A model generated the notes under the pieces. The model was not told where the DNA came from. It searched no databases and worked only from the letters and a program-made list of their open reading frames with translations. Made by a program: the position numbers and the translations under genes. Below, in pieces: positions 2,817 through 58,959 of a stretch of 60,314 nt of DNA. Source of the stretch: Acidobacteriota bacterium (GTDB lineage: Archaea > Nanobdellota > Nanobdellia > Woesearchaeales > DATGWN01); assembly GCA_035299465.1 (NCBI GenBank), contig DATGWN010000029.1, forward strand, positions 1 through 60,314, read 5' to 3'. Position 1 is the stretch's first letter, and every line of letters begins with the position of its first letter.

Positions 2817-3425
2817 TTATTTTCTATTTTTGTACCAATCAACAAATTGTGACTGACAGCCATAATTTCCGACCTTGTCCGTCCATGACTTGAACTCTTC
2901 TTTCGTCAACTCTGCAAGCGTCTTTGTCCCGTCTCCAAACGTTTCGATGACCATGATCTGCGGTAAATCAGACCAATGCCACGGCTCGCGTTTACCTTGC
3001 GGTTTTGGCGCAACAATACCTTGCAGCTCATCATAGAAAACCATCGGCTCACGGAGAGTATCATCCATGTAAGTCAAACAGTGTTTCGCTTTGAAAAACG
3101 GAACAACACCGCCATTGAACGAATACACCGCATTAGCTATAAACGCAGGTCCCAGTGATGGATTACCCATTATCTGACTGACGAATGCACCTGGCCATCC
3201 ACCGAGTGCTGGAATGAAAAAACCCGCGTCAAGTGTAACACACGGAGCTTTGATACGTTCGAATGCGTAGAGAATTTTGAATGATGCAACTTTTTTTACG
3301 TCGTTTTCCTGTGGTTCAGGAATATCCATTTTGTACTGCTTCAGATTTACCGGATAGTCGCCGAATTTAAGTCCCAGTGTATTGACTTTTCCTACATTTG
3401 ACGTTGCAAAGTACAATGGATCCAT
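2817..3425 (-). CDS. non-canonical purine NTP pyrophosphatase (Ham1/RdgB/ITPase family)
   Basis: FATSNVGKV N-terminus, EPQ...K, TLDAGFFIPALGGWPG motifs; start moved to MDPLYF at 3425. Confidence 0.88.
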   Translation of the reverse strand: MDPLYFATSNVGKVNTLGLKFGDYPVNLKQYKMDIPEPQENDVKKVASFKILYAFERIKAPCVTLDAGFFIPALGGWPGAFVSQIMGNPSLGPAFIANAVYSFNGGVVPFFKAKHCLTYMDDTLREPMVFYDELQGIVAPKPQGKREPWHWSDLPQIMVIETFGDGTKTLAELTKEEFKSWTDKVGNYGCQSQFVDWYKNRK

Positions 3426-57358: not shown

Positions 57359-57793
57359 TCACTTGATGGCAAAAGTGTGTATATCATCCGCCATCAGATA
57401 TTCGAACAACGTCGTTTTTGTCGGATCAAGACCAACCGTTTTGCATGCGCCCACAAACCATTCGCGCGTTTTTGGATTATTGTACGAAGATTGTTTTTCA
57501 GTGAAGTCAGACCATATTTTGATATCATCTGCCGATCGTGGAATTCCCGCAGTCAAAAGCCAATCTGCAATTTGCTGATCAGACAGTCCCGCCTGCACTT
57601 TTTCTTTTAGTTGCGCAGCTGTTATTCCTTTGTAAGAAAAAAGCATGTTGTCAACAGGACAATCATAGTGATAAAGTCCGATTTTCCCAGCGAGCAATGC
57701 GCGGCATTTGTCAATCGTTCGTCCTAGGATTACAAAACCGTTCAATCGTTCCGTCGGTTTTCGTGGCGGTTGTATCGTGAGATCGTTTATCAT
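57359..57793 (-). CDS. DUF5069 domain protein
   Basis: PPRKPTERLNGFVILGRTIDKCRA...YHYDCPVD..LF; DD..F end. Confidence 0.85.
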   Translation of the reverse strand: MINDLTIQPPRKPTERLNGFVILGRTIDKCRALLAGKIGLYHYDCPVDNMLFSYKGITAAQLKEKVQAGLSDQQIADWLLTAGIPRSADDIKIWSDFTEKQSSYNNPKTREWFVGACKTVGLDPTKTTLFEYLMADDIHTFAIK

Positions 57794-57845
57794 CGTATTG
57801 CAAAACAGCAAGAACCCTTTAAAACAATAATGCAAGAAAAAACAT

Positions 57846-57953
57846 TTACTCGACTAGCTGGCGTATCATCCACATCACGCCTTCACGTGAAAGAGTGATA
57901 CATAGTAGACAAGCGCCATAGACGACCAGCAGAACGACCACCGCAAGCCTCAT
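57846..57953 (-). CDS. 35-aa hydrophobic microprotein (micro-operon gene 3)
   Basis: MRLAVVVLLVVYGACLLCITLSREGVMWMIRQLVE*; ATGA-coupled. Confidence 0.55.
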   Translation of the reverse strand: MRLAVVVLLVVYGACLLCITLSREGVMWMIRQLVE

Positions 57954-58057
57954 AGTGATTCTTGCGGAACTCGCTGCGCATCTATCCAGTCAGTGTCTTC
58001 ATACTCGTCCAAATCTATGAACGAGTCTCGGCCGTATAATTCATACAAATCAGTCAT
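57950..58057 (-). CDS. 35-aa acidic microprotein (micro-operon gene 2)
   Basis: MTDLYELYGRDSFIDLDEYEDTDWIDAQRVPQESL*; SD-like GGGGGT. Confidence 0.55.
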   Translation of the reverse strand: MTDLYELYGRDSFIDLDEYEDTDWIDAQRVPQESL

Positions 58058-58058
58058 C

Positions 58059-58151
58059 TTATACCCCCAAAAACGTATTGTCCTTCCCGTTTTCGGTCTG
58101 CCAATTGCCTTCTCCTATCAATTCCGATAGCGATATTACGGCTTCCTGCAT
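58059..58151 (-). CDS. 30-aa microprotein (micro-operon gene 1)
   Basis: MQEAVISLSELIGEGNWQTENGKDNTFLGV*; SD GGGGTGA 5 nt before the ATG. Confidence 0.5.
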   Translation of the reverse strand: MQEAVISLSELIGEGNWQTENGKDNTFLGV

Positions 58152-58339
58152 ATCTCTCACCCCAGATTAAAAGGTGGAAAGAAGAGAAGATAATAGATTG
58201 CTTGCCTCAATATGTCCAAATATGTATTTTACATATACTCGTTTAAATAGAACGATTTACACATAAAATGCATAAAAAATTGGCTCAATTACACATGAAA
58301 ATCAATAACGCTATAAAGGCGGAAACACGATACGTACAT

Positions 58340-58828
58340 ATGAAACGCACATTATACATATTAGCACTTTTTGCGGTCTTGCTCATGTTCGCTGGCTGCA
58401 GTAAGGCAGCGCCAGAAGATACCTCATTGAAGGACAAACTCTGTACTCTTGAGTATGAACCAGTATGTGGCGCAGACGGTTCGACGTATGGTAATGAATG
58501 TATGGCTCAGGCAAACAAAATTGCCGTTGCGTACATGGGACCTTGCACAGCTGCTCCAGTCGGAACAGTTGAACAAGCATACGACGTGGAAATGATCCTC
58601 GGAAACAAAAATCCAACAAACATAATCTCATTGCCAGTGAATGCAGAATCAGTTATCAAAGTCACAAACCAGCGTGACGCGAAGACTGTCTTCTACCTTC
58701 CACAGCTCGACGTGTATGAATCTCTCGAAGTTGGTGAGACGAAGTACATCGCAGTCGTACCATCAAAGACAGGTTTGTACAGCGTGCAACTCAACAGTGC
58801 AGCATACGCAACCTTCCGAGTGGAATAA
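58340..58828 (+). CDS. secreted lipoprotein-like protein with a Kazal protease-inhibitor domain and a cupredoxin-like domain
   Basis: Signal ..FAGC; CTLEYEPVCGADGSTYGNECMA...GPC. Confidence 0.85.
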   Translation: MKRTLYILALFAVLLMFAGCSKAAPEDTSLKDKLCTLEYEPVCGADGSTYGNECMAQANKIAVAYMGPCTAAPVGTVEQAYDVEMILGNKNPTNIISLPVNAESVIKVTNQRDAKTVFYLPQLDVYESLEVGETKYIAVVPSKTGLYSVQLNSAAYATFRVE

Positions 58829-58885: not shown

Positions 58886-58959
58886 GGGACTGTAGCTCAA
58901 CCTGGGAGAGCACACGACTGAAGCTCGTGTTGTTGGGGGTTCAAATCCCTCCGGTCCCA
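58886..58959 (+). tRNA. tRNA-Phe (GAA)
   Basis: GGGACTG/CGGTCCC; anticodon arm CACGA-CT-GAA-GC-TCGTG; T-loop TTCAAAT; TTTATAAA upstream. Confidence 0.95.

Follow-up and report, generated by a model that had tools for sequence, protein, structure and literature searches.

The 546-nucleotide (nt) spacer at positions 57794-58339 of the archaeal contig DATGWN010000029.1 separates a DUF5069 gene from a divergent gene for a Kazal-domain lipoprotein and contains, on its minus strand, a chain of three very short open reading frames (micro-ORFs). The contig, designated C29 here, was analysed over its whole length of 60,314 nt and is referred to below as the window; it belongs to assembly GCA_035299465.1 (1.21 Mb in 108 contigs, about 95% complete). 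ORF1 (58151-58059; ATG 58151, TAA 58059) encodes a peptide of 30 amino acids (aa), MQEAVISLSELIGEGNWQTENGKDNTFLGV, ORF2 (58057-57950; ATG 58057, TGA 57950) a peptide of 35 aa, MTDLYELYGRDSFIDLDEYEDTDWIDAQRVPQESL, and ORF3 (57953-57846; ATG 57953, TAA 57846) another one of 35 aa, MRLAVVVLLVVYGACLLCITLSREGVMWMIRQLVE. A single base (58058) lies between ORF1 and ORF2, while ORF2 and ORF3 share an ATGA overlap; the frames run 0/+1/0, that is, ORF1 and ORF3 occupy one frame and ORF2 is shifted by +1. Shine-Dalgarno (SD) sites stand 5 nt before the ATG of ORF1 (GGGGTGA, 58163-58157) and of ORF2 (GGGGGT, 58068-58063, inside the 3' end of ORF1), and a T6 run (57842-57837) begins three bases past the stop codon of ORF3. 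Judged by its layout, with co-directional frames, gaps of +1 and -4 nt, SD duplexes of -10.6 and -9.8 kcal/mol, respectively, and 5-nt SD spacing, the chain has the form of a translationally coupled operon. The three frames, both SDs, the ATGA overlap and the T6 run, as well as the box TATTTAAA and a 7-3-7 palindrome (both discussed below), had been listed in the initial annotation, and each of them is present at its reported position. On balance, we favour the view that the spacer carries a lineage-specific, unannotated, leadered, SD-dependent small-protein transcription unit on the minus strand; the hidden small-protein unit proposed in the initial annotation appears probable in view of the coding signal of ORF2, the rank of the SDs (top 0.4-0.7%) and the start/stop coupling of ORF3.

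The SD duplexes were computed with the anti-SD sequence GAUCACCUCCU (contig C104), the genome's own 16S rRNA ending in GGAUCACCUCCU. Among small ORFs, the SD of ORF1 ranks in the top 0.4% and that of ORF2 in the top 0.7%; measured against long genes, the former is in the top 2.2%. GGGGG and GGGGT are among the most enriched upstream 5-mers of this genome. ORF3 has no SD of its own (-2.5 kcal/mol). Upstream of long genes, TATA is sharply concentrated at -32 to -25, because of which most mRNAs of this genome are taken to be leaderless; a subset of the long genes carries SD 4-mers at -12 to -9. Two classes of starts are thus seen genome-wide, namely a leaderless majority, in which the transcription factor B recognition element and TATA box (BRE/TATA, CCGAAAcaTTTATAAA) begin 38 nt before the ATG, and an SD-led minority with GGGGG, GGGGT, AGGTG and GAGGT enriched upstream. 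SD-led starts are therefore a real signal class in this mostly leaderless genome.

Coding potential was scored in bits per codon with a frame-periodic fourth-order Markov model, contig C29 being left out of training, and each peptide was recoded 2000 times to part amino-acid composition from codon choice. The score of ORF2 (0.41) exceeds those of all 2337 small ORFs and of 96% of real-gene segments, and, when it is compared with synonymous recodings, its codon choice is better than 99.9% of the uniform ones and than 97% of those that follow genome usage. ORF1 (-0.06) and ORF3 (-0.11) score in the non-coding range, the low value of ORF3 being due to its hydrophobic composition. The ORF2 peptide contains seven Asp, four Glu, two Arg, three Tyr, one Trp and one Phe, and its net charge of -9 lies in the 0.13% tail of small ORFs; with a predicted local distance difference test (pLDDT) value of 58 in AlphaFold, it is probably a largely disordered, acidic, aromatic peptide. 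ORF3 reaches a maximum 19-residue hydropathy of 2.87 (top 0.07% of small ORFs) and was modeled by AlphaFold as a single helix (pLDDT 95) followed by the tail SREGVMWMIRQLVE, and is predicted to be a single-helix membrane peptide. ORF2 is very probably a genuine gene and the best supported of the three, and ORF3 is probably a real, coupled membrane peptide. A coding gene on the opposite strand is rejected, as the plus-strand frames of the spacer have negative, non-coding scores under the coding models.

The initial annotation considered a chance alignment of three back-to-back frames to be unlikely; for the bare chain this does not hold genome-wide: the 4450 ATG ORFs of 30-60 aa form 172 coupled pairs and 3 coupled triples, vs. 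about 6.6 triples expected from independence. The other two triples lack SDs, one of them lying wholly within real genes and one mostly in an ORF-free stretch. For a triple within one 546-nt spacer, Markov simulations gave P = 0.0009, a figure conditional on where one looks. As for the SDs, both members reach -7 kcal/mol or better in 2 of the 468 coupled pairs of 25-70-aa ORFs, namely ORF1/ORF2 and a pair on contig C107 (2848-3038), and both of these belong to the 20 coupled pairs located in ORF-free spacers. Per genome, 0.06-0.09 consecutive ORF pairs would be expected to have two SDs of such strength (about 0.09 at -9 kcal/mol or better). Small ORFs with strong SDs are about threefold more numerous in spacers than expected (8 vs. 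2.5), and some of them are recognizable real small proteins, e.g., an L37e-like ORF.

These figures bear on the simplest alternative, namely that the micro-ORFs are chance reading frames in a non-coding spacer between divergent promoters, where nothing is translated and where G-runs, T-run and hydrophobic frame came about by coincidence. The number of triples genome-wide agrees with chance, as do the non-coding scores of ORF1 and ORF3, and so does the lack of homologues and of conservation in the same genus (see below); moreover, the features were picked after the fact from a 60-kb window. However, chance would also have to account for two very strong SDs in one coupled pair, for an ORF2 score above that of every small ORF together with codon usage in the top 0.1% of recodings, and for a triple falling in this very spacer. 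We regard this explanation as rather unlikely.

Alternatively, the chain could derive from a larger gene that is broken or was assembled incorrectly, ORF1 and ORF2 being a single frame of about 66 codons split at T5G5, or the 0/+1/0 chain as a whole being the relic of a decayed gene. The junction between the stop codon of ORF1 and the SD of ORF2 lies inside the homopolymer pair TTTTTGGGGG (58063-58073, minus strand), a typical indel site, where a change in length by one base would fuse the two frames into about 66 codons. In addition, ORF1 and ORF3 are in the same frame with ORF2 at +1, the ORF2 frame is open for 18 codons upstream of its ATG, overlapping ORF1, and the strong coding signature is retained in ORF2 but not in its neighbors. 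On the other hand, a search of 5.8 billion proteins with the ORF1-2-3 concatenate brought up none of 58-184 aa, a full-strength GGGGGT SD at ideal spacing from the ATG (0.7% tail) would have to be a coincidence, the poor codon choice of ORF1 would leave half of the fusion non-gene-like, and the ORF2/ORF3 junction has no homopolymer. A split gene is accordingly seen by us as improbable.

Promoters for the favoured small-protein unit were sought with a BRE/TATA matrix trained on this genome (consensus CCGAAAcaTTTATAAA, site start at -38, median score of true sites 11.5), which predicts starts to the base where checked, e.g., 3070 for the C107 gene with ATG 3070. The best candidate BRE/TATA on the minus strand, GAGCCAATTTTTTATGCA (58286-58269), scores 8.5 and has a predicted start at about 58248, which would give a leader of about 97 nt; the background of sites scoring at least 8.5 is 4e-4 per position, which amounts to about 0.05 in the 120 nt preceding ORF1. 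The near-symmetric TATA box TATTTAAA (58249-58242) is ambiguous as to strand, scoring 2.6 on the minus strand (predicted start about 58219) and 6.6 on the plus strand (about 58272, toward the Kazal lipoprotein gene). A TTG frame of 20 codons ("ORF0", 58219-58157, minus strand) starts at leaderless distance from this box, with TTG 58219, and its TGA overlaps GTG 58160, an alternative start of ORF1 that would yield 33 aa but lacks an SD (about -0.8 kcal/mol). ORF0 has no SD either (+0.6 kcal/mol), its codon score is -0.12, and it most likely represents nothing but the 5' leader.

The perfect palindrome ATATGTA-N3-TACATAT (58220-58236, 7-nt arms), taken for an operator in the initial annotation, has nothing but its position to support this role. 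Spacers contain perfect palindromes of this arm length at 0.92 per kb, and about 0.5 is thus expected in this gap; the motif is present in a single copy, no second one being found in a genome-wide search; and no regulator or other DNA-binding gene was identified by domain searches among the neighbors, which encode the DUF5069 protein, the Kazal lipoprotein, a DUF6970 protein and an oligonucleotide/oligosaccharide-binding (OB)-fold protein. Furthermore, the TATA box scores 2.6 in the orientation that an operator of this unit would need, vs. 6.6 in the divergent one. A palindrome between TATA and start is seen in 2 of 275 leaderless promoters, and as an RNA hairpin this one folds with just -3.2 kcal/mol.

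At the other end, the T6 run is a candidate archaeal oligo-T terminator: runs of T6 or longer at most 15 nt from the stop codon are found in 7.2% of long genes vs. 1.3% of small ORFs. It is followed by the TATA box of the DUF5069 gene (57809-57833), which can be read in both directions. Its minus-strand score is 5.9, with the start predicted at 57795, whereas the plus-strand reading (57809-57826) scores 11.4 and would place a start at about 57847, in antisense orientation to the 3' end of ORF3. As each flanking gene has its own TATA at leaderless spacing, the micro-ORF unit would stand alone.

The RNA of the region (57835-58250) has a predicted fold with z = -3.07 for the minus strand vs. -2.03 for the plus strand, the minus-strand signal being concentrated in the 3' part (57835-58010, z = -2.62). 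There, a hairpin at 57975-57933 with the core CCGCAAG/CUUGCGG encloses the stop codon of ORF2 and the AUG of ORF3 (-21.3 kcal/mol; z = -2.56, 3 of 200 shuffles folding as well). No Rfam family was found above noise.

From these elements we infer transcription, translation and coupling of the micro-ORFs along the following lines. A weak promoter at 58286-58269 or TATTTAAA would produce a leadered mRNA of about 400 nt, unusual in a mostly leaderless genome, on which the two very strong SD sites would serve as ribosome loading points. Translation of ORF1 may open the structure around the SD of ORF2, and ORF2 would then yield the 35-aa highly acidic, aromatic, disordered peptide. Since ORF3 has no SD of its own and its AUG would be locked in the hairpin, it should be reachable only by ribosomes that end ORF2 and restart at AUGA, and would be made about one-to-one with ORF2 or below it. 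Transcription would end at the T6 run, just before the leaderless promoter of the DUF5069 gene. As to function, our best guess would be that a small membrane peptide is paired with an acidic, soluble one; the toxin-antidote reading of ORF3 and ORF2 is unsupported.

A number of observations weigh against such a unit. The micro-ORFs are absent from NCBI's annotation, and the evidence for a minus-strand promoter, while present, is weak and ambiguous. As regards codon choice, 93% of uniform recodings do better than ORF1, which also lies in the 0.4% tail of the recodings that follow genome usage; for ORF3 this evidence is neutral, fitting either recoding model. Exact look-up among 15 billion sequences gave no match, and neither did a word search of 5.8 billion proteins, queried with the frames of ORF2 and of ORF3 and with the ORF1-3 concatenate, reveal any homologue; a HMMER search of ORF2 against 1.84 billion representatives returned a sole match, to the acidic repeat of a eukaryotic epidermal growth factor-repeat protein, which is spurious. 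Conservation in relatives, to which the initial annotation had looked for support, did not emerge either, as neither 40 relatives nor 400 genomes of the order yielded a micro-ORF match in six-frame translated searches. Collections of genome and viral contigs contained no match. Finally, in the one genome of the same genus a 350-aa gene, and no micro-ORFs, is located upstream of the DUF5069 homologue (60% identity).

A further candidate, a match to ORF3 with 45% identity in relative G031, was rejected because it corresponds to another reading frame within a gene of 729 aa. The three peptides had no match in Pfam, PADLOC, PHROGs, NCBIfam or PDB (for ORF3, at E up to 1 in Pfam, NCBIfam, PADLOC and PHROG), and homology thus lends no support to the toxin-antidote and nucleic-acid-mimic ideas of the initial annotation; no paralogues or tandem copies were found in the genome itself. 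Around DUF5069 homologues in the same genus, in the same family and at 12 metagenome loci, other genes, and no micro-ORFs, were found upstream. The flanking proteins are singletons at 90% identity, and the collections searched hold no closer strain. With nothing similar found in any other genome, the locus is to be viewed as a lineage-specific curiosity and not as a new system.

The "three microproteins" of the initial annotation are not supported as such: ORF2 has very strong coding evidence and ORF3 is coupled and strongly membrane-like, but ORF1, whose codon choice is un-gene-like, does not look like a gene under long selection and is probably a young ORF or a leader that is translated.

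The C107 pair occurs in a comparable setting (C107:2755-3070), which comprises a weak BRE/TATA (6.4), a leader of about 55 nt and two SD-led ORFs of 33 aa (MKRMTYDPYVLYINAVFFERMKLLSMTASRGVR) and 30 aa (MSLSTFLQRAGHPVLEWALEDSTCERDLGA) with an ATGA overlap. The SDs of the pair (2848-3038) have duplex energies of -8.3 and -9.8 kcal/mol, and the coding scores of its two ORFs are like those of genes. Its end coincides with the strong promoter (13.7) that serves a leaderless gene of 190 aa. Similar to the ORF1-3 unit, the pair thus combines a weak promoter, a leader, two strong SDs and an ATGA overlap, and ends by the BRE/TATA of a leaderless gene; it differs in having two ORFs instead of three, both of them gene-like, and shares no sequence similarity with ORF1-3. 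Neither of its ORFs is conserved in the 40 relatives, and conservation provides no calibration of the double-SD criterion. Other spacer ORFs with strong SDs (-9.7 to -11.7 kcal/mol), 40-55 aa long and protein-like, are C58:3379-3510, C28:4476-4643, C99:17673-17840, C16:9821-9943 and C89:22235-22381; these are candidate unannotated small proteins.

Turning to the neighborhood, the DUF5069 gene (57359-57793, minus strand) is leaderless, with ATG 57793, and the divergent Kazal lipoprotein gene (58340-58828, plus strand) starts at 58340; NCBI gene calls give the same starts for both. A tRNA-Phe gene (58886-58959) lies beyond the latter. The DUF5069 gene is patchily distributed: of the 40 relatives, it is present only in that of the same genus, with 60% identity, and in a member of the family, with 40%, the neighbors being different in each case. 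The Kazal lipoprotein has the lipobox LMFAGC, and its Kazal-type protease-inhibitor domain is joined to a cupredoxin-like domain. Kazal-domain paralogues are present in all nine family relatives searched, some of these paralogues having several tandem Kazal repeats, and no clear orthologue of the lipoprotein was found in the same-genus genome. The window encodes an ABCE1/RLI protein, which places the organism among the archaea, as well as an RFC-like AAA+ protein, an Ssb-like OB-fold protein and HerA, and we infer that the genome is a small one of the DPANN type.

If the small-protein unit is real, it adds one more unannotated archaeal small protein, in an uncultivated archaeon with a small genome. 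It would also mean that a mostly leaderless genome retains a minority of leadered mRNAs with very strong SDs and chains of mini-cistrons, two such loci being seen here. Double-SD, synonymous-codon and spacer criteria could act as a cheap filter for micro-genes in metagenome-assembled genomes. The peptides are orphans known from a single assembly, and the finding would therefore have little biological reach unless toxin-like or regulatory activity is demonstrated.

Among known systems, type I toxins are described by a length below 70 aa, one transmembrane region, a polar or aromatic C-terminus with a Trp past the helix, and a location apart from other genes in a spacer (PMC2887945). ORF3 agrees with this description in its size (35 aa), hydropathy and tail, in which Trp and charged residues follow the single helix, and, like Hok, Ldr/Fst, TisB and Ibs, it belongs to a structured locus in a spacer. 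The region could therefore be read as a type-I-like toxin locus or else as a structured RNA with two functions, in which a hok-like ORF3 would be silenced by structure and coupling and opposed by an antisense RNA starting at about 57847, a reading that overlaps with the small-protein unit favoured here. The unusually structured minus-strand RNA, the ORF3 AUG placed within a hairpin of -21 kcal/mol, and a plus-strand BRE/TATA of 11.4 (at the TATA of leaderless genes, reverse scores of 11 or more are rare, being found in 3-7% of cases) are consistent with it. However, ORF3 has no homology to Hok, Ldr/Fst, TisB, Ibs, ShoB, TxpA or other known type I toxin families and no tandem copies or paralogues, the antisense promoter may just be the DUF5069 TATA read backwards, and the plus strand after about 57847 has no T5 terminator before the Kazal gene. 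We thus judge this reading to be quite improbable. The specific version of it, in which ORF3 is a hok-like toxin of a DPANN-like archaeon gated by ORF2 coupling and the hairpin and by antisense RNA from the opposite face of the neighbor's TATA, seems to us highly improbable; within it, the ORF2 peptide might neutralize the ORF3 peptide directly. No archaeal type I toxin system was found in the literature searched, and a hok-like ORF3, if true, would be an archaeal type-I-like system without precedent there. Unlike type I toxins, ORF3 lacks both sequence homology and tandem duplication, and its antisense RNA is a prediction; because the homology was not found and the antisense partner and toxicity are putative, we do not file it as a member of this group. 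Assignment to type II toxin-antitoxin systems is not supported either, as the three peptides showed no match to a toxin fold or DNA-binding domain, ORF2 is predicted to be disordered and the palindrome is at chance level.

Termination-reinitiation at AUGA with a structure-masked start codon is known from hok/mok and many operons. The small-protein unit resembles such coupled overlapping cistrons in that ORF3 has no SD, its AUG overlaps the stop codon of ORF2 in AUGA and lies in a hairpin that a terminating ribosome would open; it differs in that the partners are 35-aa peptides, whose coupling is deduced from the sequence. Close parallels are provided by archaeal small ORF-encoded proteins found by ribosome profiling (Ribo-seq) and peptidomics, such as the small proteome of Haloferax volcanii (PMC10117724), and by the spRNAs of Methanosarcina mazei with their antisense partners (bioRxiv 10.1101/2025.10.28.685009). 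Like these, the micro-ORFs described here are no longer than 70 aa, were missed by annotation and are situated in a spacer, and the known ones are often lineage-specific and sometimes accompanied by antisense RNAs. Those proteins are experimentally established, whereas the present ones are known from sequence alone, in an uncultivated archaeon with a small genome, and are distinguished by the chaining of three frames on a putative leadered, SD-dependent mRNA.

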